Of a stretch of 32,428 nt of DNA, positions 1,159-32,428 are shown piece by piece; position 1 is the first letter of the stretch; each line of letters begins with the position of its first letter. A program made the position numbers and the translations under genes. A model generated the notes under the pieces. That model searched no databases. It was not told the origin of the DNA and saw only the letters and a list, made by a program, of their open reading frames with translations. Source of the stretch: a virus (taxonomy: Duplodnaviria > Heunggongvirae > Uroviricota > Caudoviricetes); the IMG/VR virus record IMGVR_UViG_2690316184_000005, positions 1 to 32,428 of that record. One strand, 5' to 3'.

Positions 1159-1302
1159 TGCCACCTACATCACTGCATGCATACACAGTAGTCTTAAGGC
1201 GCATTCAGATCAACTGTCATTTACTATGATTAACCTTAATCTTGCAAAATGTTGAGGTTTTTCTTAATCTTTACACCTATTCACATTTCTGGCGAGCATA
1301 GA

Positions 1303-1854
1303 ATGATAAGCAGCAAGGAAGATTACAAGTCATACCTTCTCCTTGACGAAAAGGCTATGAGGCTTCAGGGGTCAAGGTTAAAAAATATAATATTCAACGA
1401 TATATGGAGATTCCTTAGATTGCTAAGGAGGTTGGAGTATCTTACTAATTGCAAAGGAAATAAAGTTTTAATTCTGATTACAAGACTTAGGTTACGCAAA
1501 ATTCAAATGAAACTTGGATTTTCAATACCTATCAATACCTTTGGTCCAGGGTTATCAATACCACATTATGGTAACATAGTTGTTAACGCAGGAGCCAGGA
1601 TAGGTGCAAATTGCCGAATTCATGTAGGTACGAATATTGGCACATCAGCTGGAGCAGGACTTGAATCCCCTGTAATTGGTGATAATTGCTACATTGGTCC
1701 TGGAGCAAAAATTTACGGAAAGATAGTTATAGGTGACAATTGTGCAATAGGCGCGAATGCAGTCGTTAACAAAGATTTTAAAGATGGAAATTGCACTATT
1801 GCTGGCGTCCCTGCCAAGATAACATCATATAAAACATCAAAAGGTTATATATAA
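1303..1854 (+). CDS. Hexapeptide-repeat (left-handed beta-helix) acetyltransferase, serine-acetyltransferase/WbbJ-like; candidate lysogenic-conversion enzyme
   Basis: Tandem hexapeptide repeats visible: 'VNAGARIGANCRIHVGTNIGTSAGAGLESPVIGDNCYIGPGAKIYGKIVIGDNCAIGANAVV'; visibly AT-rich. Start uncertain (ATG at 1249, 1303 or later; 1303 has a weak GAG RBS). Confidence 0.7.
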   Translation: MISSKEDYKSYLLLDEKAMRLQGSRLKNIIFNDIWRFLRLLRRLEYLTNCKGNKVLILITRLRLRKIQMKLGFSIPINTFGPGLSIPHYGNIVVNAGARIGANCRIHVGTNIGTSAGAGLESPVIGDNCYIGPGAKIYGKIVIGDNCAIGANAVVNKDFKDGNCTIAGVPAKITSYKTSKGYI

Positions 1855-3921
1855 TTATCGATAGAAAACAGTTTTCAGTCCTGTGTTAGTCCCAACAGAG
1901 GTAATCCCTCTGTAAAGGCCGACATTACTGTTGGTTGTGCTATCAACCCTAACGATTCCATCAATGTTATTTATAAGTGAATTTGTGGTTTGTACAGCGT
2001 TGACAGCATAAGATTTACTTTGTGCTGATATATTTGATGCAACTAAAGTACCAGTTGTCATTGATACACCAACGCTTGACGAACCACTCTCAAAAACTGA
2101 ATTTTTAACAATAGCTTTTGCAACCCCACCAGAAATGTTTATATCTGCTCCGTTAAATGCCTGACTGATTCTCTTGACGTCTGACACGCTGATCAGAGAT
2201 ATACGTCCACCTGATAATATATCAAAGAAGAATGAAGACCTTGTGGGATTTGAACTTGATACTGAAATATCACTTAAGTAAACATTACCAATATTAAATC
2301 CGTATCTGATTTCTAACAAAATCGCCCCGTCATAACCTTGCCCATATATGCCATTAATATTTACATACGGTGTTGTGTTATTAACTGCCCGAATTGCGAC
2401 TATGTATCTTGATCCTTCAGAGTGAATGTTATTCGCGTTTACCTGCCCGGAAGTTATCTGTAGACCTGCGCTTAGCTCATAGGTTGCTGTCGTCTTAAGA
2501 TAAACATCACTGATAGTATTGAACCCATCAGATGAATCAACACCATTGCCAATCCTTCCTCGCCCACTAACACCACGAACAACACAGGAACTACCATAAA
2601 CACTAACACAACTATACATAGGGTTAGTTGCTGAGGCGTCATCACAAACCGCAAATACATTTGTTACTGTAACATCATTGGCCTGAACTTTGACTGCTCG
2701 CTTAAGTGCATTGTAAGTATAAACGCCATCAACCTTTATTTTCTTCCCGCTGAGCATATTTGATGATGAGTTGTAAATCTGAATAACAACACCATCAGCA
2801 TCTTCCCAAGGGTTTAGCTTGTAAATCCTTACGTTACTTATAACTCCACTTGATACCTCATCATCATTTGATGGTACTGGATCAAGTGCCGTTCCTACAA
2901 GAATCCCTCGACATGGCCCAATTACATCAACCTGAATACCATTTCCAATGGTGGTAATATTATGTATTGATATGTTATCAACGACAAAATTCAATACAGA
3001 ATTTGCATCTATGAAAATACCATAAGTTAGTTGAGAACCATTACTATCAAAAACATCAACATTCTTAACTACTGGATTAACAGCCCCTGTTTTGATATGA
3101 ACAGGCCTTCTAATTGCCATCATATTGCAGTTAACTTTAATATTGTTAAGCATGCATGAGTTTACTGTTATAAATGATCCTTCATCTCCGATAGCAACAA
3201 TTTCACCATTAATCAAATCTTTCGTAATATTAATGGTGCTGGCTTTAACTGTAGTTCCGTTAAGGTCCACATTCAATCCGTGCGCCATAATAGATTCAAT
3301 TGAATATTTCGCATCAGCACTCGTATCGATATACTGAGATGGCCAAACCAGTGTGTTATGAGGTGAAGAGTATTTATAAGATAGGCCATTCCTTGTTAAA
3401 TATAACTGTGATGCTGATACCGAAAACCCATCGGCAAGACCTGTAATTCCCGGAGCATATTCGTAAATCTCACCTGAGGATGTGGTGATTTTAAAACCAA
3501 CATTTGGATCTGAATCCATGGCACCATGTAATGCCCCATTTACTAAATTAACCCCACCAACACCATCTAACTCCTGTCTTAGTTGGTCAGGGTCATACTT
3601 CAGCACATTAGGAAAATAGAACTGCTGCGCACCATACGCATCATATACAGCCATAGAATGGCCTTGCACAGTTACGAACTTGGCAATCTGCCCGTTATAT
3701 ACCGGGTAACCAGCAGCGTTAATGATGATTGGTTGCGAAACAGGAATGTGAGAACCGTCTTCGTTTTCCACATAAACCTGAATCTGGTTTTCAGGATTTA
3801 CCGGATCAGTGTCAATTTTACCGATATAAATTTTGCCATTGGCAACCGCTTTAAAAGAACGCGCCATAGTGAAGAGTTGCGAAGGCATGCTTACCACAAC
3901 ATTTGCGGTGATATCTGACAT
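1855..3921 (-). CDS. Tailspike protein: P22 gp9-type N-terminal head-binding domain fused to a divergent C-terminal receptor-binding/enzymatic domain
   Basis: N-terminus '[58 protein letters not shown]...[14 protein letters not shown]' matches my recollection of the P22 tailspike N-terminal domain; the rest does not resemble the P22 endorhamnosidase. Start at ATG 3921 (GGAG upstream), not track start 3969. Confidence 0.9.
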
Positions 3922-4042
3922 TTCATTGCTCCAGACGAATGATATGATGCAACCATGATGTGATTGCATACAGAAATGGTACTATTGAGTATTTATCCAG
4001 TAGGTTACGATGCCATTCCACCCAACTGGTGAGGCATCAAGG

Positions 4043-4309
4043 ATGTACAGCAAATACGACGAGGCGCAGTTTCACTTGAGACTTCCGCATGAACTCCACG
4101 CGAAAATTAAGCAGCGTGCGAAGATGAATAACAGATCGCTGAACTCAGAGATAATTGCAGCGATTGAAGAATCATTGGATAAACAAAACTCTGCATCTGT
4201 TTACATTGACGATGCAGAGCGTATGGCAGAACAACAATCTGAGATGGTTAAGAAAATTGTCTTTGATACGCTTAAGACCATGTATAGCAATAATAAAAAG
4301 GAAACATAG
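4043..4309 (+). CDS. mnt: Mnt-like ribbon-helix-helix repressor (Arc/MetJ fold)
   Basis: 'FHLRLPHELHAKIKQRAKMNNRSLNSEIIAAIEESL...DDAERMAEQQSEMVKKIVFDTLK' parallels P22 Mnt ('FNFRMPMEVREKLKFRAEANGRSMNSELLQIVQDAL...NDAERLADEQSELVKKMVFDTLK' as recalled). Start chosen at ATG 4043 (GGTGAGG RBS 8 nt upstream); track start 4010 also possible. Confidence 0.7.
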   Translation: MYSKYDEAQFHLRLPHELHAKIKQRAKMNNRSLNSEIIAAIEESLDKQNSASVYIDDAERMAEQQSEMVKKIVFDTLKTMYSNNKKET

Positions 4310-4379
4310 AAATCTAGTTTCCGGCTAAAATGGCATTTCCTTCATGATATCCTGTGAAAAACTAAGGAGAGTTAGCCAT

Positions 4380-4865
4380 ATGAAAAAATCACTGTTAATT
4401 ATCCCGCTTCTGCTGGTTGGATGCGCAAAAGTAAGTGACTATCAAGCAAGTTGCGAACAACGCTATCAAAAGCTTAGCGATATGGCTAATTGCCTTGATA
4501 CCAGTGTGAAGAACGACTCACGCATGGCATCAGCACCAACACCTAAGCTGTATGTCCTTGCTGCAAAGATGCTCGGGCAAGGTGTCGATGAAGGCAAGAT
4601 AAGTGACGCACAGGCAAGACTTGAGCTTCAGAATCTTTATGTTCAATTACAAAGCCAAGAACAAGCCCAACAAATAGCACAAAGCCAAGCATTCCAGCAG
4701 GCTTTATTGAATTATCAGGCTGTAAACACAATGCAAGCGATCGAGCAAAAAGCGCGCCAGCCTGTTATAACTCAACCTTACCCAACACGCGTTGACACAT
4801 ATACAAACTGCAATTCAGGATTTGGAAACACGGTAACATGCAACAGTAGCAGTAACATCAGATAA
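4380..4865 (+). CDS. Predicted lipoprotein with Gln-rich coiled-coil-like region; function unknown (candidate superinfection-exclusion/moron protein)
   Basis: Signal peptide plus lipobox 'MKKSLLIIPLLLVGC'; AAGGAGA RBS 9 nt upstream of ATG 4380; same strand and immediately downstream of mnt. Confidence 0.65.
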   Translation: MKKSLLIIPLLLVGCAKVSDYQASCEQRYQKLSDMANCLDTSVKNDSRMASAPTPKLYVLAAKMLGQGVDEGKISDAQARLELQNLYVQLQSQEQAQQIAQSQAFQQALLNYQAVNTMQAIEQKARQPVITQPYPTRVDTYTNCNSGFGNTVTCNSSSNIR

Positions 4866-4955: not shown

Positions 4956-7235
4956 CTATTCTGACAACGAATCAGACTTCGCACCCTGCGTCAGTGCATT
5001 AATCGCTTTTTGCGCTTGCTGCATGGCTTTCTCAAACGCTGTCGATCCGCGTGGGGTGTTTGCCATTCGGAGCATTGCATTTCTGAATGGCTCGCTCTCA
5101 TAGGCGCGAGTAAGAAGTCCGTAGCTTACTGCTGCGCCAGTTGTCGCCGGGTTCATTGCCGTCCCATATCCGATAATGAACGGGATGGTTTGCTGCCCTG
5201 TTGGTGTTGTTACTGCCGCTTTTGCTGCCTGCTGAGTGGACTGAAGGTAGTTTTTCAATCCTTTCAGATAAGCGGCTTCCTGACCTTTAAATGTGATGCC
5301 AGTCTGGTTTTGCAGGATGTTAAGCTGTCGAAGGAACTGGTCAGGGGAACCACCTGATTTCTCCATCGCCTTTCCAATGATGCCATTGCGCATTTGCGCC
5401 CTGCCAACACGACCAACTGAGTTATACAGCGTCTTAATTTCCGATTTGTTCTTGCTGAATAGCATGTTGTTGACAACTTCCGGCGTCAGGTCGCCTTTCA
5501 TGAGAACATTCTTCAGCCTGGTATTCTTTAGTTTCGCCGCTTCGTCAGCGTAGACGGCATTGGCCTGCTGATATTTACGGAGAGTATCGTTGCCAAGATT
5601 CTGACCAATGGCACCATTGATATCGTCTGTCATCGCCTTGTAAACGCGCTGAATGGCGGCATCGGAACGGTTTGGTAACACTGGTCGCTCACCCTTCACG
5701 TCCATTCTGAACTGGCTGCGCAGATCGCTTAATTGCTTCAAATCCAGATTTACCGGACCATCAGGACCAGCATTGCGAACAAGCTCATCACGATAGGACT
5801 GAAGTTTTGAAATAGTCTCGTTATCGGCGACCTTACCAAGCTTCTGCAGGTTAGATATTTCTGTATCAATCTGCTGAATTGCTCGAGCAGGCTGGATATT
5901 GACTCCCGCCATTGCATTCTGAACCTGCTCAAGACGGTTCCCTGCAGCACGACGAATTCCTGATGTTTTCGCTTTAAGGCTGTCAATAACAACAGCTGGA
6001 TCATACTCACCGAATTTATCAGCAAATCTCTGCACCAACTGGCTTCTCGCTTCCTGTTGCGTTGCTCTCATCCCGCTTGTGCCAGCCAGGGGGATATTTT
6101 CCGCTGTCGTCTGCGCCATTTTCCCGACGCGGGAAGTAGGCTGTAACAGGTCTGTGGTGTGCAGAGGAACTCCTTCACGCTCTGCAAATCTGATAGCCTG
6201 CTGCGCTTCTGGCGCAATAGCACCACGAACGCCACGATAAGCAGCACCTAATCCACGTCCGGCAGCGTTAATAGCACCGCCAGCCAGCACACCAACGCCT
6301 AAATCGGTGGCGAGGGCTTCCGCATCATCTTTCGCACTATTTGCAGCAAGTGATCCAACTGCGTTTTCTGCGAGAAGTCGTGTTGCACCCTGAGCAATTC
6401 GACCAGCAAGTGTTGGTGCCTGTACCGCCGCTCTCTCAACGCCAGCAGGAGTGAGGTAAGGCAATGCTTCAGCAAACACCCTGCCCTCTGTCGTTTGTGG
6501 AGTCAGCGCGCCTTGCTGAAGGCCAAAGTCCTGCTCTAATCCCTGCGTTGTTACTCGTGGCGCTGGTTGATATGTACCATCGCCAATGCCGAGTTTACCG
6601 CCAGCCCATGCAGCCGCACTTGTTACAGCATCGGCAACTGATGCAGGTATGTTTGCCACGTTCACGCCAGCCTGCACCAGTCCGCGACCAGTTTCAGCCG
6701 CGGCATTGCCAAGGTCGGAAATGAAACCTCCTTGCTGCTGTGGCGCTGCCTGTGTACTTTGCTGTACAGGCTGTTGTGTAGCTTGATTCTTCCTAGGGAG
6801 GTATTCATCAGCTTGCTGGTTGTGCAGACTCTCCGCATATGCAGTGGCATCGTCAGGATTGTCGAACATACCAAGATGCTTTCCCGTCCTCATGAAGTTA
6901 TCAATAGCTTCATCATCAGACATAATGCGACCATCATCACTAACGGTAGGAATCAGCACCTCTCTACCATCTATATTGGTAGACATGCTCCGCACAGTGC
7001 TAATGCTGCCATCAGAGTTTTTAACAACAGGCCGATTGTGAATGTCAATATTACCCTTCTCTAGCAGACCTCTAGGGTAAGCAGAGTAAAACGCTTGTTT
7101 TGCCTGCTCTGCATTTTCTCCGGCTTGCGGGGCCACGACTTCATTGAAGTATTGTTCCTGAGCCTGCGCTTTTTGTTCTGGTGCTAACGCCTGATACTGT
7201 GGAGAAGCGATAACATCTTTCCATGCTTTAGCCAT
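4956..7235 (-). CDS. Ejection (internal virion) protein, gp16 position of P22-like phages
   Basis: Synteny: last gene of the gp14-gp7-gp20-gp16 block; start overlaps upstream stop (TAATG); 759 aa with Ala/Gln-rich low-complexity stretches. Confidence 0.65.
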   Translation of the reverse strand: MAKAWKDVIASPQYQALAPEQKAQAQEQYFNEVVAPQAGENAEQAKQAFYSAYPRGLLEKGNIDIHNRPVVKNSDGSISTVRSMSTNIDGREVLIPTVSDDGRIMSDDEAIDNFMRTGKHLGMFDNPDDATAYAESLHNQQADEYLPRKNQATQQPVQQSTQAAPQQQGGFISDLGNAAAETGRGLVQAGVNVANIPASVADAVTSAAAWAGGKLGIGDGTYQPAPRVTTQGLEQDFGLQQGALTPQTTEGRVFAEALPYLTPAGVERAAVQAPTLAGRIAQGATRLLAENAVGSLAANSAKDDAEALATDLGVGVLAGGAINAAGRGLGAAYRGVRGAIAPEAQQAIRFAEREGVPLHTTDLLQPTSRVGKMAQTTAENIPLAGTSGMRATQQEARSQLVQRFADKFGEYDPAVVIDSLKAKTSGIRRAAGNRLEQVQNAMAGVNIQPARAIQQIDTEISNLQKLGKVADNETISKLQSYRDELVRNAGPDGPVNLDLKQLSDLRSQFRMDVKGERPVLPNRSDAAIQRVYKAMTDDINGAIGQNLGNDTLRKYQQANAVYADEAAKLKNTRLKNVLMKGDLTPEVVNNMLFSKNKSEIKTLYNSVGRVGRAQMRNGIIGKAMEKSGGSPDQFLRQLNILQNQTGITFKGQEAAYLKGLKNYLQSTQQAAKAAVTTPTGQQTIPFIIGYGTAMNPATTGAAVSYGLLTRAYESEPFRNAMLRMANTPRGSTAFEKAMQQAQKAINALTQGAKSDSLSE

Positions 7236-8590
7236 TAATCACCCCATAGTGAAGAAAAGTTACTGCTGGTTGCTGGCTGTGATACCTGTGCAGGTTGAGA
7301 TTGCTGCCGCTGTGATTTTCCAACATTAACGTTATATTGTTGGTTGTAATTGTTGGTGTATTCCTGAATCTCACGAATCGACTGCTGCATAGCCTCCGGG
7401 CTTGAATAGTCAACCTGCGGCATCCCCTGAAAATACATCTTCGCTTCTGCAACGGTGTTAATACCACTGGCACCCATGTCCCTTGCTGCCGCCACACCCT
7501 GATTCTGCATTCTGCCCTGAATACGTTGTGCTGAGTTATATAACTGGCGCTGCTCTTTTCCTGTTAATCGGCTGCGAACATCAGCACCAATTGCTGGATT
7601 ACCTGCACCGCCTGTCATTCCTGTCATGAAATCGAGAGCAGAAGCGTCTGCATTTGCGATCGCGTCGATATCCTTCTTCATGGCATAGTTTTGTGCTGAT
7701 GCAGACGATGTTGCAGGCGCTGCGATTGAACTGGCAGGAACGCGAACCATATTCCCCTCGTTGTCGATGCCTTCGTAGAACGCATTAGCCCCAGCGCCGT
7801 GAAGCTTCCCGCCTACCGTTACAGTTCTGCCATCTGATAACTGAACTGTACGCTCATTATTCCCAACCGACCCTTTCATTGATGCTCTCTGCATCGATAA
7901 ATCCTGACCGCGCATCGTGATATTCTGACCACGTGCTGTTAGCGCCTCTCCAGCCTGATTGCTGCGGATTGTCTCTGCCAGCCTGCCTCGGTCAATTTCA
8001 CGACCAGCCATCTTATCCTGAACATTGAAGTAATCAATCGGACCGAGAGCAGCCATCCCAAGGTGATCAACAAACTCACCAAATCCTGAAGGGTTCTGCT
8101 GATACATTTGAGCAACGCTGTTAGGGTCAACACCGACGCGAGTCAGTTCCTTGGCGTTGTTTTGCAGCCATGATTGCATTGCTTCTGGAGACGATGACGC
8201 AAGGCGTGCGCCAGCCGCTAAGGTGCCGATAGAATTACGCTGATCTTCATCAATGAATCCCATGCCTTTACGAACGGATTCAATCTGGTCTGGATATTGA
8301 GTAGCCAACTGACGCAAAGCACCGCGATCACCAGACGCATAAGCATTAGCGTACGCCTGCTGAAATTCTTTCTGCCGCTGAGCCTGCTTTTCCTGCTGAA
8401 ACACCCCTGCAATACCTGAAAGGCCTTGCAAAGCAGTCAGCCCAACATTGTTAGCGCCTGAACGCTCAATATCATTGTTCTGCCTGATAAGCTGAAGCGT
8501 ATTGCCGATGTCATTTACGCTCGGAGCGTTTGAGTTGACGCCGCCGATACCAGCCAACAATCCGCCGTTTGTTCCTTGCCAAGTAGCCAT
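7235..8590 (-). CDS. Ejection protein, gp20-like
   Basis: Synteny and size (451 aa vs about 471 in P22 as recalled); AGGGG RBS; translationally coupled to neighbours. Confidence 0.7.
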
Positions 8591-17376: not shown

Positions 17377-18876
17377 TTAAGTTCTCCGTGCGATGGGCCT
17401 GATTGGGGCTGGTATCTTTTTCTCTTTTGGTTTTTTGATGTCGCGCATCATTTTTGCGAAGCGGCGCATCATGTATGCATAGCGAACGGCGGAGAGCACG
17501 TCGTCGTTAAGCTTGACGATTTTCCCGTTTTCATCACGGTGATAGAGGCGAAACTCCTCAAAGAATGGCTCACAGGTGTTAAATACTTTGAAGCGGCCGT
17601 CGAGCATCATGTCTCGCAATTCAGTGATGCCAGGCTCAACAGCATTACCGCCATCAGGCCATGTCGCATGCTCCTGCAACATCATAAAACCAGCGTCCGC
17701 GTACTGCCCTTTAAGCTGCTCACCGCCGCCCTTCTCGTGCTGGTTTCCGTCATGAGGCCATGCTGTTGGCACTTTATGCGCCCATGATTTAACAGCTCCC
17801 CATGCCTGAACGGCTGTTTTTTCTTTCGCCTTCCACACGCGTGAAACGTAGATTGTGTCTGCGTCCTTATCCCACCAAAGCTGAACCTGCGCTTGTGGGT
17901 GATCCCATCCGAAATCCATCCCGCCAATTACGTAGAAGTGATCAGGACACTCGAACGGCTGGCACTTAATCGTCTCTTCCGGTATCTGGAAGATTCGACC
18001 GCTACCCATCGTAGGAATACCGCGAGCTCGAGCCTCTCTCTCATGCTCTGGATAGGATGCGATGATTTGCTCTTTCTGCTCGTCGGTATAGTGCTCAGCG
18101 TCATAGATGGTCATGTTGACCACTTTCTGCGACTTGCTGGGATTCTTCAGAAACTTGGTAACAACGTCAGACATCCCCATCAGCGGGGTAAACGTCAGGA
18201 TTGAGAATTGCCCGTATTTGTTGGTACGGGTAAGCCCTTCGCCATAAATGCTGTATGGTGGTTCTTCGTCAAACCACACTCCGTGGATTGTGTCACCCTG
18301 CCAGCGAGCACGACCTTGCGAGTATGGCTTGAAGTAGCAGATTGAAATGCCATCTTCAACGCCATCAGCCGTGTGATGCTTAACCAGAAGGTGATCAACA
18401 AGGTTCGGAAAGAAAGGAGACTTCTTCCAGCTAATGATGTCCTCTTTCGGTATGGAGCCGTAGCCAGGCTCATCATTCTCTTCGATACGACCGCACAGGA
18501 TGCGTTGAGTCGTTTTGGTTACAGTCTCGTTTGTCTCGCCGCCAATCCAGAAGACAACAGGCTCATAGAAACGCTTACCTTTCCACTCCCCACCATATTT
18601 ACCATCAGCCGGATAGCCTTTTGTGCCCGGATAACGCCCGGTAAGGTGAAACGCGACTTCAGCAGCACCAGTAAATGACTTACCAAGCTGGTTACCAGCC
18701 ATAAAACAGCGCTCTGGATAGTCATGCCCGGCGTCGATGAACTCACGCTGTTTGCTGTATGGCGTAAATTCATATAGCAGGTGTGTGTTCCGGTAGTTCT
18801 CTTCTTCTTCGAGTAGCTCGAGCAACTCGATTTGCTCTTCGTCGCTCAGGTTATCAAGAATCGCGTCCAGTTCCAC
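17377..18876 (-). CDS. Terminase large subunit, P22 gp2-like
   Basis: 499 aa; Walker-A-like '[10 protein letters not shown]'; matches recalled gp2 throughout. Confidence 0.95.
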
Positions 18877-19342
18877 GGTTGAATAGCTCCTTGATACGAG
18901 AGCGTCGCTTATCGCGATCTCCCTTATCAGGTGTCACGTCTTCAACTTGCGACTGCTCTTTGAGGCCCAAATCACGGGCGATGATGTTAGCGTTGAGAAG
19001 GTCAGCTGCTGCGCCAGAGAATTTCTGATCGTAGATGACCTGCTCTGCTCGCGTAACGACTTCAGATAAATCTTCTCTCAGGCGATATGTGCGCCATGTT
19101 TCAAGCGTCACATCAATGAACAGAGTGAGGCCTGTAATAGTCATCGCTCGCATCTTGGCGATAGGCTCTTGTATCACTTCACCCTGATACGAGAATGCCT
19201 TCATCTCCCATAGCGGGTTAGCTTCTACCCACTCGAAGTATTCACAACAAGCAGCCCACAGCGCCTCAGGCGATTCGAATTTAGGGTTTCGCCCATGACT
19301 ACTGCGGGCCTCCCAAAATCGGTTGCCCTTTGGTGCTGCCAT
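18854..19342 (-). CDS. Terminase small subunit, P22 gp3-like
   Basis: 162 aa '[50 protein letters not shown]'; overlaps large-subunit start. Confidence 0.9.
19054..19075 (-). other. Candidate pac site (headful packaging initiation) inside the small-terminase gene
   Basis: Minus-strand sequence GAAGATTTATCTGAAGTCGTTA matches my recollection of the P22 pac site located within gene 3. Confidence 0.5.
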
Positions 19343-19421
19343 ATTGATTATTTCCCTTCTGCTTGCTTATCCCATTCATCGCGGAATTTGGATGGGTTGT
19401 CGAAACCTTGAGTTGCCATGT

Positions 19422-19664
19422 TTATGCTCCGGTAGTGAACAGGTCTAACGCTTCCTTCGATTTACGCACCGCTTCGATAGTGCGGGTCGTGATATCTGAA
19501 TTAGCGCCGCCTGACTGGAAGTGAATTTTGAATAGCTCAAGCTTCAGCTCGTCAGTGCCAATGAACTGAAATGCTTCTTCTGCGGCTGCGTTCTGGTTCA
19601 TGACCAGTTTGTAAATCTCTAACTGGAATTTCTGTTCTTCAGTCATGGGAATAATCTCTGCCAT
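19422..19664 (-). CDS. Small hypothetical protein upstream of the terminase genes (80 aa)
   Basis: ORF with GGAG RBS 8 nt upstream of ATG 19664; occupies the small-ORF position before gene 3 in P22-like genomes. Confidence 0.5.
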   Translation of the reverse strand: MAEIIPMTEEQKFQLEIYKLVMNQNAAAEEAFQFIGTDELKLELFKIHFQSGGANSDITTRTIEAVRKSKEALDLFTTGA

Positions 19665-19810
19665 TGTTGGCTCCGTTTATCCGTTAAAAGGGATATCAGT
19701 TAAGTTATCCCGTGTAGGGTATAAGCCATTATCAAAGCCACTCTGTAGGGAATGGCTTTTGTGATGGCAATAAAAAAGGCCTACTTAGCGACCAATTTAA
19801 TAATTAATTA

Positions 19811-20053
19811 TCAATAATGTGGGAATTGACTACTATTTTGCAAGATAACCCAAGATGGGCGAAACAAGTCAAAAACATTGATGCTTAACAGGGCTTCATT
19901 TATTGATTTTTTTTCATCCATAGAAACTCCGCGTCCTGCTTTTGACATTACAAGCTGACCATTAACTATTTCACTACATTGTTTTACATAACTACCTTGC
20001 GGTATTGATTGAAAGTTACATGTACCATTTATTATTTTATCAATTTCACTCAT
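19811..20053 (-). CDS. Small hypothetical protein in an AT-rich islet (80 aa)
   Basis: ATG 20053 preceded by GAGGT RBS (5 nt spacing); surrounding sequence visibly AT-rich compared with flanks. Confidence 0.4.
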   Translation of the reverse strand: MSEIDKIINGTCNFQSIPQGSYVKQCSEIVNGQLVMSKAGRGVSMDEKKSINEALLSINVFDLFRPSWVILQNSSQFPHY

Positions 20054-20347
20054 ATCAACCTCGTCTAGTTGTTCGTCATAGATTCAGTGGCTGGCGGTGA
20101 CGATTCCGCTTTTCGGGAGCTACCCTAGCCACTGTTTTATTCTATCCGATGTCTTTCCATCAGTCCGCCACCACAAAGAATCTTTTTTGCCATAAGGCAG
20201 GAGGTTCATCTTTCAGTGGCTGCCAGTGTTATTTCCCCACTTACTGGCTTGGGTTGTTTCGCGGTACTGCCGTAACTGGTTGCCCAGAATAAATTCCGGT
20301 TTCATTATCAAGCCCACCCGTAGATAGGCTTTGTAATGACTACATGG

Positions 20348-20827
20348 TTAAATGATTTGCCAGTCTTCAGCCATCAGGTCGCCAATGGATGGAACCCATG
20401 TAGCAAGGCGGTTCTGTGAGTTTTTCAATACAAGCGTGTCATTGAAAGTTGGCTCGCCAACATATTCGCCAAAGCCATAACCCAACGCAGACGCTAATTT
20501 TTCCCCTTTCATGAGATAAACAAACTGGTCTTTCCCATTCCATCCTGCCCGCTGCAAACTTTTGCCCTGTTTTAACGCTTCCATGGCAAGGCCGAAACTT
20601 AGTCCTGATACCGGACGATAAGCCCTTTCGAATACTTCTTTTGGACTCCAGCTAACGTAGCCATCAAAGCGATCGGTGTTAGGTTTTCCGCCATCCAGAT
20701 ATTCAACCAGATAGCCTTCGTCCTCGCCGTTTTCTCCGGCAGGAAGCTGCCAGCCACGAAAATCGTTATATGCCTGTCTCGTCATCGGAAAGGCGTTAAT
20801 CAGTTTTACGCCAATATGCTGGGTCAT
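20348..20827 (-). CDS. Hypothetical protein, possibly DUF2829-like (candidate Thoeris anti-defence Tad2-type sponge); unverified
   Basis: 159-aa ORF with AGGTGA RBS; C-terminal 'AMEALKQGKSLQRAGWNGKDQFVYLM...TWVPSIGDLMAEDWQII' resembles motifs I associate with DUF2829 phage proteins. Confidence 0.55.
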   Translation of the reverse strand: MTQHIGVKLINAFPMTRQAYNDFRGWQLPAGENGEDEGYLVEYLDGGKPNTDRFDGYVSWSPKEVFERAYRPVSGLSFGLAMEALKQGKSLQRAGWNGKDQFVYLMKGEKLASALGYGFGEYVGEPTFNDTLVLKNSQNRLATWVPSIGDLMAEDWQII

Positions 20828-21048
20828 AAAATCACCTATGGAGTTGGGAATAAAAAACCCCGCGAATGCGAGGCTAAATCCTGGTATTTGTAATGACTGG
20901 CTCTTATCTCAACGCAGCCCCTTACCGCGCGCCAGATGCTCAATATCAAGCATCAACAATGAGATATTTAATCTGGATTCACTCCAGAAGTGATCACCAC
21001 CCTGTCTACAGAGCCAGATGTGAAGGATGATGAGTAAAATTATCGCTA

Positions 21049-21486
21049 TCATCGAAGGCATTGCGTCCTTATGTATTCCTGCAGGTAGTTAACCTGCGCG
21101 GTTATCCTGTCGATTCCACTTCGGAGACGGTAATAATTGAGTTCAGCATCTGCTGTAAGTCTTGGACTTTCTCCATCGCCCATGCTGCTGGCTCCGGTCG
21201 TTGACTTTGCACAGATGGCGGCGACTTGCAGGCGCTTACGACCAGCAGAAACATCAGCACGGAGACTTTCGATAGTCGCGTTAGCATCAGCAAGCTCCTT
21301 TGTGTATCTTGCGTCGAGTTCTGCTACATCACGTTGACGCTTCTGCATATCAGCGATGATGGATGTGGCTTTATCGCGCTGCTCTTTGTAGGTCATGGCG
21401 TTATCACGGTAATGATTAACAGCCCATGACAGGCAGACAATGATGCAGATAACCAGAGCGGAGATAATCGCGGTTACTCTGCTCAT
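21049..21486 (-). CDS. Rz: Spanin, inner-membrane subunit (Rz)
   Basis: N-terminal TM '[20 protein letters not shown]' plus coiled-coil region; overlaps R stop (ATGA); contains embedded Rz1 frame. Confidence 0.9.
21102..21287 (-). CDS. Rz1: Spanin, outer-membrane lipoprotein subunit (Rz1), embedded in Rz in the +1 frame
   Basis: '[20 protein letters not shown]' signal + lipobox Cys, Pro-rich mature peptide; AAGGAG RBS 7 nt upstream of ATG 21287. Confidence 0.75.
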
Positions 21487-21959
21487 ACCTCAATCTCTCT
21501 GACCGTTCCGCCTGCTTCTTTGAATTTTACAATCAGGCTGTCAGCCTTATGCTCGAACTGACCATAACCAGCGCCCGGCAGTGAAGCCCAGATATTGCTG
21601 CAACGGTCGATAGCCTGACGGATGTCACCGCGATCAATCATCGGTAAAGCGCCACGCTCTTTAATCTGCTGCAATGCCACTGCGTCCTGGCTTTTGGGGG
21701 AGAAGTCTTTCAGGCCAAGCTGCTTACGATAGGAATCCCACCAACGGGAAAGAAGCTGGTAGCGCCCGGCTGCTGTTGATTTGAGTTTTGGGTTTAGCGT
21801 GACAAGTTTGCGAGGGTGATCGGAGTAATCAGTAAATAGCTCTCCGCCTACAATGACGTCATAACCATGATTTCTGGTTTTCTGCCGTCCGTTATCAGTT
21901 CCCTCTGACCACGCCAGCATATCGAGGAACGCCTTACGTTGATTATTGATTTCCACCAT
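21483..21959 (-). CDS. R: Endolysin, lambda R-type lytic transglycosylase
   Basis: 158 aa '[51 protein letters not shown]' essentially as I recall lambda R. Confidence 0.95.
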
Positions 21960-22266
21960 CTTCTACTCCGGCTTTTTTAGCAGCGAAGCGTTTGATAAGC
22001 GAACCAATCGAGTCAGTACCGATGTAGCCGATAAACACGCTCGTTATATAAGCGAGATTGCTACTTAGTCCGGCGAAGTCGAGAAGGTCACGAATGAACC
22101 AGGCGATAATGGCGCACATCGTTGCGTCGATTACTGTTTTTGTAAACGCACCGCCATTATATCTGCCGCGAAGGTACGCCATTGCAAACGCAAGGATTGC
22201 CCCGATGCCTTGTTCCTTTGCCGCGAGAATGGCGGCTAACAGGTCATGTTTTTCTGGCATCTTCAT
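21943..22266 (-). CDS. S: Holin/antiholin, lambda S-type (dual start: S107 at 22266, S105 at 22260)
   Basis: '[62 protein letters not shown]' as recalled for lambda S; 17-nt overlap with R as in lambda. Confidence 0.95.
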
Positions 22267-22699: not shown

Positions 22700-23323
22700 C
22701 TAACGTGTGACCGCATTCAAAATGTTGTCTGCGATTGACTCTTCTTTGTGGCATTGCACCACCAAAGCGTCATACAGCGGCTTAACAGTGCGTGACCAGG
22801 TGGGTTGGGTAAGGTTTGGGATTAGCATCGTCACAGCGCGATATGCTGCGCTTGCTGGCATCCTTGAATAGCCGACACCTTTGCATCTTCCGCACTCTTT
22901 CTCAACAACTCTCCCCAACTGCTCTGTTTTTGATATATCAACCGCACGGCCTGTACCGTGGCAATCTCTGCATCTTGCGCCCGGCGTCGCGGCACTACGG
23001 CAATAATCCGCATAAGCGAATGTTGCGAGCACTTGCAGTACCTTTGCCTTAGTATTTCCTTCGAGCTTTGCCACACCACGGTATTTCCCCGATACCTTGT
23101 GTGCAAATTGCATCAGATAGTTGATAGCCTTTTGTTTGTCGTTCTGGCTGAGTTCGTGCTTACCGCAAAATGCAGCCATCCCGAATCCGGCCTGTGATTG
23201 TGCCATCCCCATAGCAGCCATCACATCAGTACCGGAAAGAGAGTCAGAAGCCGTGGCCCGTGGTGAGTCGCTCATCATCGGGCTTTTTGGCGAATGAAAT
23301 TTAGCTACGCTTTCGAGTCTCAT
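22700..23323 (-). CDS. Q: Late-gene antiterminator Q (lambda Q-type)
   Basis: 207 aa 'MRLESVAKFHSPKSPMMSDSPRATASDSLSGTDVMAAMGMAQSQAGFGMAAFCGKHELSQNDKQKAINYL...CRDCHGTGRAVD...CGRCKGVG' as recalled for lambda Q (zinc-binding Cys cluster). Confidence 0.95.
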   Translation of the reverse strand: MRLESVAKFHSPKSPMMSDSPRATASDSLSGTDVMAAMGMAQSQAGFGMAAFCGKHELSQNDKQKAINYLMQFAHKVSGKYRGVAKLEGNTKAKVLQVLATFAYADYCRSAATPGARCRDCHGTGRAVDISKTEQLGRVVEKECGRCKGVGYSRMPASAAYRAVTMLIPNLTQPTWSRTVKPLYDALVVQCHKEESIADNILNAVTR

Positions 23324-29878: not shown

Positions 29879-30073
29879 CTATTTGTTTTTCTTGTTGCTT
29901 GGGAAAGGACGAACTTCCTCTCCAATCACACTGCCATCAGGCTTTACCGTAACCATAATGTTACGGCCTGCCAGAATGGCCTTGCTGATAGCGCACTGGA
30001 TTACACCAAAGTCACTGGCTGCTTTAGCCTGTCCATGGATTTTGGCGTAATCGGCAAGTGTCATTCGAATCAT
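29879..30073 (-). CDS. cro: Cro-like repressor
   Basis: '[59 protein letters not shown]' parallels lambda Cro ('[39 protein letters not shown]...EEVKPFPSNKK'); start ATG 30073 with GGAGAG RBS. Confidence 0.8.
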
Positions 30074-30102
30074 ATGCACTCTCCGTTATTAACCATGAAC
30101 AA

Positions 30103-30173
30103 AGAATACTACAGGTATTCAAAGCAATCAATACTCAGGGTATTTTTAGTTTAAGTACCTTAGCTATTAGAAT
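30103..30173. promoter_or_regulatory. Right operator region: OR1 (30104-30120), OR2 (30130-30146), weak OR3 (30154-30170); pR (minus strand -35 30126-30131, -10 30103-30108); pRM (-10 TAGAAT 30168-30173, leaderless cI mRNA)
   Basis: 17-bp dyads GAATACTACAGGTATTC and CAATACTCAGGGTATTT with about 25-bp centre spacing; minus strand TTGATT-N17-TATTCT; TAGAAT 7 nt before the cI ATG. Confidence 0.6.
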
Positions 30174-30179
30174 TAAGCT

Positions 30180-30896
30180 ATGGAAAATAAAAAATCACTG
30201 ACGACAGAACAGCTCGAAGACGCTAAGCGGCTTAAGGCTTTGTATGAGTCAAAAAAGAAAGAATTGGGAATAACCCAATACTCAATCGCTGATGAACTGG
30301 GTATCACCCAAGGAGCGGTAGGGCATTATCTTAATGGCAGAAACGCGCTAAACGTTGAGGTTGCATCTGGTTTTGCGCGATTGTTGCAAGTCTCAATTGC
30401 TGATTTTAGCCAGTCAATTGCTGCCAAGGTTGCAGAACAGGCAGAAAGCCTTAAGAGCGATGCCAACGTAAGGTATGCAGGGGAATACAGAGCAGGAAAG
30501 AGGTATCCGGTGTTAAGCAGTATCCAGGCTGGCTCGTGGTGTGAAGCATGCGAACCATACACCATTAAAGACATAGATGTTTGGCTTGAGTCTGACGCGC
30601 ATATTCAAGGTAATGCGTTTTGGCTTAAAGTGGAAGGTGATTCAATGACGGCACCGGTTGGGTTAAGCATTCCAGAGGGAACATTCGTTCTTTTCGATAC
30701 CGGAAGGGAGGCGATCAACGGCAGCTTGGTCATAGCAAAACTTTCTGACTCTAACGAAGCAACATTCAAGAAGCTGATAATCGACGGCGGAAATAAATAC
30801 CTCAAGGGACTTAATCCTGCATGGCCTCTCATGCCAATCAATGGAAACTGCAAGATTATAGGCGTTGCAATTGAGACAAAACTAAGGCTGGTTTGA
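30180..30896 (+). CDS. cI: CI-type prophage repressor (HTH + LexA/S24-like autocleavage domain)
   Basis: 'LTTEQLEDAKRLKALYESKKKELGITQYSIADELGITQGAVGHYLNG' and C-terminal 'AFWLKVEGDSMTAPVG...FKKLI' parallel lambda CI; helix residues differ, so different immunity specificity. Confidence 0.9.
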   Translation: MENKKSLTTEQLEDAKRLKALYESKKKELGITQYSIADELGITQGAVGHYLNGRNALNVEVASGFARLLQVSIADFSQSIAAKVAEQAESLKSDANVRYAGEYRAGKRYPVLSSIQAGSWCEACEPYTIKDIDVWLESDAHIQGNAFWLKVEGDSMTAPVGLSIPEGTFVLFDTGREAINGSLVIAKLSDSNEATFKKLIIDGGNKYLKGLNPAWPLMPINGNCKIIGVAIETKLRLV

Positions 30897-31957: not shown

Positions 31958-32428
31958 ATGACAAAATCATGGAGCGTACCTTTTCCTGAATCAGAAACTG
32001 AACATGATGGAATGCCTGTTTTCTGGAGATTCCAGGCGACAGTTGAAGAAGATGGGATAAAAATATTCGCACTTCAATATATAGCTTTTCATCAGACAGA
32101 GCATTATGCATGGTTGGTTCCTGCGCATTGGATTGTTAATTTTAAACCAGCACCAAATCAGTGGTTACAGGAATGGAAACAAAGGAGAAATAGATATGCA
32201 ATTAAGAAAGTAGCAAAAAATGCAGAAAGATCTTTTGCATTCCCAACGAAGAAACTTGCTATTGAAAGTTTATTGCGTCGGAAGAAATACCATTTAATGA
32301 GAATAAAACAAGATTTGGCTGTTGTATCAACTCTTGTTGATGGGATGAAAAATATTGATACATCAACACCAGATATTGAATATAACTTTGGACACAACCA
32401 AGAAACAGAAAATTGGGTATTTTATTAG
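31958..32428 (+). CDS. Hypothetical protein, first gene after N in the early-left operon; AT-rich
   Basis: 156-aa ORF, GAGGTGAG RBS 5 nt upstream of ATG 31958; basic central helix 'WKQRRNRYAIKKVAKNAER...LLRRKKYHLMRIKQ'; no family recognised. Confidence 0.55.
   Translation: MTKSWSVPFPESETEHDGMPVFWRFQATVEEDGIKIFALQYIAFHQTEHYAWLVPAHWIVNFKPAPNQWLQEWKQRRNRYAIKKVAKNAERSFAFPTKKLAIESLLRRKKYHLMRIKQDLAVVSTLVDGMKNIDTSTPDIEYNFGHNQETENWVFY

Follow-up and report, generated by a model that had tools for sequence, protein, structure and literature searches.

An int-alpA leader RNA heads a moron cassette in a P22-like prophage and may serve as a portable translational riboregulator

The islet and its gene

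The DNA analysed here, the 32,428 nucleotides (nt) of IMG/VR record IMGVR_UViG_2690316184_000005, referred to as the window in the following, represents a P22-like (Lederbergvirus-type) prophage according to the order of its late-operon genes, and all features relevant to this study are located on its minus strand. Between the gene of a Tad2-like protein and the DUF2560 gene of this late operon lies an AT-rich islet, which contains an orphan open reading frame (ORF) of 80 amino acids (aa), ORF80 (19811-20053, minus strand, with its ATG start at 20053), preceded by an RNA of the int-alpA family (Rfam RF02996). On balance, the islet is probably a moron cassette whose leader acts as a portable regulator of translation, and it occupies the lysis-to-terminase slot of the prophage. 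Taken by itself, it is an ordinary moron with an orphan gene and an RNA from a curated family. Its wider relevance results from the finding that this RNA family, to which no function has been assigned, heads interchangeable gene cassettes as their 5' module, in phages that infect many groups of bacteria.

The base composition of the region is clearly not uniform. In sliding windows of 200 nt, the guanine-plus-cytosine (GC) content amounts to 0.33-0.365 across 19700-20099 as compared with 0.44-0.54 on either side, and the values down to 0.33 bear out the AT-rich islet which an initial annotation, made from the sequence, had placed at roughly 19780-20060. ORF80 itself has a GC content of 0.329 versus a mean of 0.48 (standard deviation 0.049) for 243-nt windows of the whole window (z = -3.06), and an equally low GC content is found in just 0.66% of these 243-nt windows. 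The 92-nt leader upstream of ORF80 is backbone-like in composition (GC 0.478), and the drop in GC content is restricted to the ORF.

The 80-aa ORF with a ribosome-binding site (RBS) reported in that annotation is present at 19811-20053, its ATG being preceded at a distance of 6 nt by the Shine-Dalgarno (SD) sequence GAGG. In comparison with relatives of 68-70% identity, the ratio of nonsynonymous to synonymous substitution rates (dN/dS) is 0.19-0.25, and hence ORF80 is a real gene under purifying selection. Two cysteines, C12 and C26, are invariant across all aligned copies. Relatives of the protein are confined to six clusters among 5.8 billion proteins, all from prophages of the Escherichia coli type, and an HMMER profile run against 1.84 billion representatives recovered only the protein's own cluster together with three spurious matches to repetitive proteins. 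Neither blastn nor tblastn gave a match in 50,697 phage records, and no Pfam, PHROG or NCBIfam family was matched. An AlphaFold model displays three helices at low confidence (predicted local distance difference test score, pLDDT, of 62), for which a Foldseek search of the PDB returned nothing below E = 1.6, so that no fold is assigned. The description as a Cys-containing, unclassified protein therefore stands after family, homology and structure searches. No signal peptide or membrane segment was recognized by eye, and judged from its sequence, ORF80 should be a small cytoplasmic protein, both real and selected.

Boundaries of the inserted cassette

The inserted element was defined by aligning the window with five relatives. 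Two of these, SEN22 and HZ41, carry an empty site at this position, where the backbone reads GGAAAGACATCGG directly followed by TTATTGC. In the window, an insert of approximately 372 base pairs (bp), located at about 19774-20145 on the minus strand and absent from both phages, starts with A-TAGAAT right after CATCGG and ends with GGTCGCTAAGTAGGCC-TTTTTT ahead of TTATTGC. Read in the direction of transcription, it consists of a -10 box, the leader RNA, the ORF and a terminator. Its 3' edge is approximate, because a 36-nt segment of the empty site has a diverged counterpart in the ~48 nt that follow (19725-19773). An acquired moron, as proposed initially, is thus corroborated by the empty site in SEN22 and HZ41, the deviant GC content of the ORF (z = -3.06) and its orphan status. 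The islet exists, but the span of 19665-20347 that had been assigned to it is wider than the inserted element.

At the distal end of the cassette (19772-19793, minus strand) resides a decayed intrinsic terminator, GGUCGCUAAGUAGGCC followed by U6, which retains a stem of 4 bp and a fold energy of -5.8 kcal/mol. The corresponding terminators of two sister cassettes in a prophage described below (L004, 8530-8552 and 6258-6280), both of the form GGUCGCUYAGGCGGCC-U6, are strong with -16.7 and -12.4 kcal/mol. The regulatory or terminator structures of its own with which the islet had been credited were therefore found in part: a structured leader is located upstream of the ORF, and a terminator remnant exists, though decayed and at the other end of the ORF, whereas the dyad ahead of the gene is not a terminator.

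The leader belongs to the int-alpA RNA family

The dyad is formed by CAGTGGCT at 20085-20092 (as read on the plus strand) and AGCCACTG at 20127-20134. The 8-mer CAGTGGCT occurs four times in the window compared with 1.07 expected occurrences, a number reached in 1 of 100 shuffles. Both arms of what had been described as a long inverted repeat are present, but instead of a long repeat they build a helix of 7-8 bp around two small hairpins, i.e., a three-way junction. This junction is the int-alpA RNA motif, which was detected by cmscan at 20073-20135 (minus strand) with 42.0 bits versus a gathering score of 35.8 and an E value of 6.5e-07 in a 1.6-kb search or 1.3e-05 for the whole window. It is the sole Rfam family above threshold in the entire window. 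Matches to mir-458, Proteo-phage-1 and GIR1 at E values of 2-8 were dismissed as chance, and neither ARAGORN nor the Rfam tRNA model found a tRNA or tmRNA in the window. Across the six scanned loci with identical ORF80, the RF02996 scores range from 35.9 to 42.0, the sixth locus lying just above the threshold.

Within the motif, helix P1 (20128-20134 paired with 20085-20091, minus strand, 7-8 bp) is made up of the dyad arms and encloses hairpin P2 (20115-20125, GGG/CCC), the junction segment GAAAA (20110-20114) and hairpin P3 (20094-20109, GCGG/CCGC), all on the minus strand. The cmscan alignment of the window motif contains the conserved nucleotides of the junction, CUAG, CGAAAAG and CC. Folding of the dyad region, which had been suggested as a check, gives the same P1-P2-P3 junction as minimum-free-energy structure (z = -2.8).

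For a broader view of the family, viral contigs of IMG/VR and genomes of GTDB were scanned with the junction-core pattern CTAG-N7-15-CGAAAAGCGG-N5-15-CCGCC, and at least 120 stretches were collected from each. Since the junction and the first P3 base pairs are fixed by this pattern, their conservation in the resulting set is circular. About 430 chance matches of the pattern are expected in 596 Gb; of the 112 scored matches in the genome set, 40 passed a filter for P1/P2 pairing and 72 failed, and only the filtered ones were used. Among 61 distinct viral instances, 6.6 of 8 positions of P1 are paired within an instance on average, compared with 4.0 of 8 if strands are swapped between instances, and all four types of Watson-Crick pairs are employed. 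That pairing is kept while the sequence varies argues against a sequence-specific DNA operator.

It is accordingly very improbable that the dyads act as DNA, be it as operator, as attC-like recombination site or as terminator, even though the repeat is exact, its 8-mer is over-represented in the window and a swappable cassette has its 5' boundary here. Besides the covariation of P1, which preserves pairing and not sequence, the loop of P3 covaries with the region around the RBS of the following gene, which is encoded by the same strand. A terminator is further contradicted by the sequence behind P1, AAUCUAUGA, which lacks a U-run, and by the scan, in which neither strand yielded a terminator at the dyad. 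Likewise, the scan called no sigma-70 promoter at the dyad. An integron-type integrase was not seen in the late-operon neighbourhood, although no search aimed at one was made.

The third copy of the repeat also speaks against a role of the dyads as DNA, as it is part of the phage backbone. A further copy of the 8-mer is located at 20214-20221, and 20212-20228 matches 20083-20099 at 15 of 17 bases. The sequence noted at 20214-20228 in the initial annotation is hence real (15/17), but this third CAGTGGCTGCCAGTG copy sits outside the insert in a stretch of ~195 nt (20146-20340), which is almost invariant in six P22-like phages despite swapped genes on both sides. Indels of 1 and 2 nt relative to P22 break any reading frame, and therefore this stretch is noncoding. 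It folds into several hairpins with a z-score of -1.5 only and might serve as a linker for recombination or as an RNA element. With only the 3' 17 nt of the motif in common, the third copy is probably unrelated to it, and may reflect chance, an old recombination or cassette scar, or else a second regulator site.

A proposed recognition loop with two downstream complements

The loop of P3, AAUCGUCA (20098-20105, minus strand), is complementary to two sites located further downstream on the same strand. The first one, site A (UGACGA, 20073-20078), abuts a hairpin, P4 (20056-20072), which is part of the minimum-free-energy fold and pairs CAACU (20067-20071) with GGUUG (20056-20060). The second one, site B (AGACGA, 20061-20066), is the loop of this very hairpin. 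The SD sequence GAGG (20059-20062) resides half in the P4 loop and half in the P4 stem. The P3 loop is therefore proposed as an anti-SD or 'kissing' loop, with site A as decoy or pseudoknot partner, and its calculated duplex energies with both sites are nearly equal (-7.8 kcal/mol for site A and -7.1 kcal/mol for site B).

This arrangement recurs across the family. Two downstream Watson-Crick complements of at least 5 nt accompany the P3 loop in 42 of the 61 viral instances with distinct loops, whereas loop-swapped controls, run 1000 times, average 2.1 such instances and never exceed 8. Site A starts at a median of 17 nt and site B at a median of 31 nt after CCGCC. In 48 of 56 canonical instances, site B is found in the loop of a P4 hairpin (26 ± 3.4 expected), and P4 stems of at least 5 bp are present in 36 instances (11 ± 2.8 expected); the observed P4 counts were reached by none of 20000 simulations. 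The P4 stems covary freely, as exemplified by ACAACU/GGUUGU, GUCAC/GUGAC and UAAUACU/GGUAUUA, and site A recurrently adjoins the 5' strand of the hairpin. In the instances listed, the 3' strand of P4 usually opens with the G residues of the SD sequence, with the start codon following about 1-10 nt further on. The same design of loop, sites and P4 is encountered in 23 of the 40 filtered instances from bacterial genomes, covering several phyla. In its layout it resembles the duplicated targets of c4-type RNAs, one of which overlaps the RBS, with the modification that one loop is used and both targets are situated downstream.

The Rfam model RF02996 ends after P1 and assigns no base pairs to the P3 loop, site A or P4. 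Its consensus tail (auaAgGG) nevertheless appears to be site A for the loop of the seed sequences (AaaCCuUua), carried along as unpaired columns. Neither these pairings nor the use of the leader in cassettes are part of the Rfam model or of the literature found, the supplement of PMC5737381 being outside that coverage. As strongly covarying yet un-annotated pairings, they provide a concrete hypothesis for the dosing or gating of phage accessory genes.

In principle, the leader could also be a passive structure, such as a 5' stabilizer, an RNase processing signal or an insulator, in which case the complementarity would reflect a static pseudoknot. That it opens the unit at its 5' end, precedes unrelated cargos and occurs at many genomic positions is compatible with this explanation, and RBS-sequestering hairpins also occur in selfish genes of T4 (mobE, I-TevI). 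A static fold, however, does not need two equivalent targets per loop, one of them over the SD sequence, and we regard a purely passive role as unlikely.

Exchange of cargo behind a constant leader

Comparison of loci demonstrates that the gene behind the leader is interchangeable. The cassette query finds matches in 48 of 5,426 complete genomes of E. coli; the whole cassette is present in 15 of the 48 and the leader only in most others, with leader-only matches covering positions 283-372 of the query, while a single listed match comprises the terminator end alone. One lysogen with the cassette is E. coli EC6622 (NZ_CP096587.1, 1450092-1450463). In several E. coli genomes the leader is 100% identical over 20056-20145, yet precedes other cargo. 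Salmonella phage BIS08P22, for example, harbors an unrelated ORF of 89 aa behind the same leader and before the same terminator; an ORF with a DUF551 domain serves as cargo in locus L004 and in E. coli NCCP15648, and two cargo ORFs of 53-54 aa are found in E. coli 13KWH46. Similarity stops at the ATG and returns at the terminator stem. In total, 16 unrelated cargo clusters of 53-248 aa were observed behind this one type of leader and loop in the loci compared, none of which matched a known function. A cassette headed by such a leader explains why cargo is swapped so precisely at the start codon.

Locus L004 is particularly informative, as this one prophage comprises two cassettes with the same terminator, one at 5920-6285 in the slot between Q and holin and the other at 8214-8560 in the slot between Rz and DUF2560. 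They share the loop core AUCGUCA and have near-identical target sites. The leader of the first cassette falls below the Rfam threshold and displays compensatory changes in P3 from GCGG/CCGC to AGUU/AACU. The Q-holin interval is the other classical moron slot of such phages, and it is here that the ORF80 relatives of cluster P0004 (68% identity) are located, behind the diverged copy of the leader and with the same terminator. In contrast to these, relative P0003 (locus L002, 70% identity) resides in the Rz-DUF2560 slot, just as ORF80 does in the window.

The same leader, over a length of 78 nt, also occurs with 76-89% identity in phages infecting Enterobacter, Vibrio, Edwardsiella, Pantoea, Klebsiella and Pseudomonas. 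Genes downstream of the wider family encode DUF1376 proteins, Dam and other methyltransferases, nucleases of the HNH, NUMOD, GIY-YIG and EndoVII types, ParB_N and DUF6387 proteins, an integrase and many orphans. Such heterogeneity fits a portable module for accessory or selfish genes rather than a pathway-specific switch.

At 1850-2080 (minus strand) of Enterobacter phage Tyrion (L263), the leader predicts that gp03 starts approximately 140 nt further upstream than annotated. The extended gp03 ORF (MNGEEERDLIATLFEEL...) resembles the cargo protein of another locus (L069) behind the same leader, and the annotated start of Tyrion gp03 is probably wrong.

The diversity of downstream genes is equally relevant for the idea that the three-way junction senses a signal, as the aptamer of a riboswitch or as the binding site of a protein. 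Its occupancy would then set the partner of the P3 loop and make translation of the cargo responsive to a metabolite or to a factor of host or phage origin. Here, the combination of an anti-SD with an anti-anti-SD element equals the classic expression platform of riboswitches, and the junction nucleotides (C-UAG, CGAAAAG, CC-U/A-G) are near-invariant across distant phyla, while helices and loops vary, a pattern typical of binding pockets. This invariance is partly circular, since the search pattern required those nucleotides, and independent support for it comes from the Rfam consensus only. Furthermore, the downstream genes (DUF1376, Dam, HNH, GIY-YIG, orphans) have no common function that would suggest a ligand. 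We therefore rate a sensor as improbable.

Putative transcription signals of the cassette

Within the insert, a -10-like hexamer, TAGAAT (20139-20144, minus strand), can be read from the sequence 4 nt upstream of P1. Defining -10-like boxes by a match of at least 5 of 6 positions including A2 and T6 and by an end 10-18 nt before CTAG, such hexamers occur just upstream of P1 in 20 of 93 distinct instances, compared with 3.2 from shuffles and 4 at a control position, which corresponds to an approximately six-fold enrichment. Full promoters of the type TTGACA-17-TATAAT are found in some instances (L037, L084 and L108). In Enterobacter phage Tyrion and Vibrio phage 1.198.A, moreover, the cassette is antiparallel to its neighbouring genes, and hence requires its own promoter there. 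A promoter of its own is likely for the cassette in the window, too, and transcripts would then start from TAGAAT at or within the first bases of P1.

Lambdoid late operons are transcribed late in infection by Q-modified polymerase. As the cassette is co-oriented with the late operon of the window, it should be transcribed by this polymerase as well, so that read-through transcripts from the Q-antiterminated late promoter would include it in lytic growth. Expression in the lysogen, if there is any, would have to rely on the weak putative promoter of the cassette itself.

Proposed mode of action

The observations outlined above suggest that the int-alpA RNA is a reusable switch acting on the translation of whichever gene is plugged in behind it. 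In the proposed model, leader and terminator form the conserved ends of the cassette, and the ORF between them is exchanged among phages, most simply by homologous recombination within these ends. On the transcript, pairing of the P3 loop AAUCGUCA with site A would leave the ribosome-binding hairpin P4 free and the SD sequence available. If the P3 loop instead kisses the P4 loop (AGACGA), it would, together with the P4 stem, cover the SD sequence GAGG and block initiation. The balance between sites A and B might be set by a leader RNA acting in trans, by a ligand or protein bound at the junction, or by nothing at all, the structure then being static.

Several observations weigh against this interpretation. 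Regarding transcription, a consensus promoter scan came up empty for the sequence ahead of the leader in all three cases, namely the window, Tyrion and the Vibrio phage; the sole -35 candidate, CGGACT at 20162-20167, matches at 3 of 6 positions and lies in the backbone, and the stringent -10 box is confined to the 20 of 93 instances mentioned above. The terminator stem has been cut to 4 bp by substitution. Regarding the RNA, folding energy is alike on both strands and does not discriminate between them, and 19 of the 61 loops lack two clear sites, although a handful of these (L016, L101, L103, L110 and L060) look like chance matches of the pattern. At 5400-5490 of locus L002, the 70%-identical relative of ORF80 is intact behind a leader that lost the 5' arm of P1 through a mosaic junction inside the motif, which implies that the three-way junction is not indispensable for retention of the ORF. 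Regarding the gene, frameshifted versions of ORF80 with 52 aa (proteins P0005 and P0006) exist in some E. coli genomes and diverge near residue 43-49, around the A8 run of ORF80 (about 19900-19915 of the window, minus strand). They indicate that the gene appears to be decaying, or phase-variable, in part of the population.

Another explanation places the main action of the leader in trans. Comparable to c4 and CI RNA, the junction would then be a small RNA that pairs with the RBS hairpins of genes with the same loop type, site A would occupy the loop in cis, and phages, satellites and morons would consequently exert feedback on copy number or engage in cross-talk resembling immunity. The 61 distinct loops among the scorable viral instances with their diverse targets, combined with a near-invariant junction core, are what would be expected of specificity groups, and the common AUCGUCA loop core and near-identical target sites of the two L004 cassettes point in the same direction. 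Rfam classes RF02996 as a small RNA, and some members possess a U-run straight after P1 that could terminate a short transcript. A target in two copies, of which one covers the RBS, is also known from c4, for which an a1b1/a2b2 target pairing was reportedly described by Citron and Schuster in 1990. The window, however, has no U-run after P1 and nothing obvious to release a short RNA, and the c4 model RF01695 found no match in 19300-20900 even at E ≤ 10. Besides, archetypal int-alpA elements also carry an Icd-like gene, and Icd-like genes are the usual targets of c4 and CI RNAs in P1- and P4-type elements, which suggests a separate system in the same element. In E. coli 873.10 (L266, 2275-6345), the order is integrase, int-alpA motif, DUF6387 gene, helix-turn-helix regulator, KilAC antirepressor and, further on, the Icd-like protein; the motif extends exactly up to the start codon of the gene that follows, and the element probably carries a c4/CI-type system in addition, judging by its gene content. 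Altogether, we consider action mainly in trans possible, though not likely.

Returning to the portable translational switch, its wider implications can be stated with some reserve. It is conceivable, if rather doubtful at present, that int-alpA-type leaders constitute a pan-bacterial, portable and sequence-programmable control module, in which a near-invariant junction presents a variable P3 loop and the loop types represent specificity groups acting in trans after the manner of the c4 and CI immunity RNAs. If this holds true, morons, homing-endonuclease genes and early operons of satellites with one loop type would be co-regulated or mutually excluded within a cell. At the same time, the leader suggests itself as a compact natural part for programmable translational control.

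Genomic context and possible role of the cargo

In the late operon of the window, all genes of which are on the minus strand, the Q antiterminator (22700-23323) is followed by holin (21943-22266), lysozyme (21483-21959) and Rz (21049-21486). Directly upstream of the cassette lies the gene of the Tad2-like protein (20348-20827, 159 aa), which matches PF11195 of the anti-Thoeris family with an E value of 1.4e-21. Downstream of the islet, the order continues with DUF2560 (19422-19664), the small terminase gp3 (18854-19342) and, as the last of these genes, the large terminase (17377-18876). In other P22-like phages, the slot between Rz and DUF2560 houses genes for KilA-N, Rha, GIY-YIG and gp49/66 proteins as well as genes annotated as anti-CRISPR. 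No phage record covered at least 80% of a 1.6-kb query (19300-20900), whereas its flanks are widely shared.

Because of this neighbourhood, with a Tad2-like anti-Thoeris gene in a hotspot for accessory genes, the most likely role of ORF80 is that of an anti-defence or host-modulating accessory protein, which is, however, a guess. More generally, such cassettes mark unexplored small phage proteins, in the present case one adjoining a gene of an anti-Thoeris family.

Some further features were noted on the way. Other AT-rich stretches of the window (GC ≤ 0.36 in 243-nt windows) are located at 1177-4491, 30038-30306 and 32029-32428. The Q-holin slot of a related prophage (L014, 3916-4068) accommodates two tRNA genes, and a match to isrJ (RF01393) is found just after Q at 2807-2885 of locus L002.

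Comparison with known systems

The int-alpA motif originates from the work of Weinberg et al. 2017 (PMC5737381), where it is not discussed in the main text. Another report (PMC12370729) names int-alpA only among listed predicted matches, and the term int-alpA-pri in PMC13612085 denotes a gene order and not the RNA. In the literature found, which does not extend to the supplement of PMC5737381, no function for int-alpA is given. The motif of the window agrees with RF02996 in that it scores above the threshold and has the same three-way junction and conserved nucleotides. It differs in location, being situated not between integrase and alpA but in a late operon ahead of a moron ORF; the int/alpA placement, however, is the context from which the name derives and not part of the RF02996 model.

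Phage morons are said to have been introduced in 2000 by Juhala et al. and by Hendrix et al. In common with these, the cassette is extra DNA between genes that are adjacent in relatives, exhibits a deviant GC content and has a terminator remnant downstream as well as a candidate promoter upstream. In contrast, the promoter in the window is weak and putative, the terminator is decayed, and a conserved structured leader common to many unrelated cargos is outside the classical description of morons.

The c4 RNA of P1 and P7 and the CI RNA of satellite P4 are leader-encoded and possess loops complementary to two target copies, one of them over an RBS. With these antisense RNAs, the int-alpA leader shares the encoding within a leader, the duplicated targets, one of which overlaps the RBS of the first gene, the variable specificity loops and the occurrence in phage and satellite elements. 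Unlike c4 and CI RNA, it does not match RF01695, uses one recognition loop instead of two and has both targets downstream. In addition, an RNase P-type processing signal is not evident, and the cargo is unrelated to icd or ant.

For free-standing homing-endonuclease genes of T4, such as mobE and I-TevI, sequestration of the RBS by simple local hairpins is known. Here, too, an accessory gene in a phage operon has its SD sequence in a hairpin, and HNH, GIY-YIG and NUMOD proteins are among the int-alpA cargos. The int-alpA leader goes beyond this design by adding an upstream three-way junction whose P3 loop is complementary to the loop of the hairpin as well as to a proposed decoy site.

Finally, integron cassettes with their attC sites are similar with respect to small, promoterless-looking ORFs, a conserved structured element and interchangeable cargo. 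In contrast to attC, the int-alpA element is positioned 5' of the ORF, resides on the sense RNA and covaries with the RBS; R and L boxes of the attC type were not found here, and no integron integrase was seen. Exchange of the cassettes thus appears better explained by homologous recombination in their conserved ends than by a mechanism of the integron type.

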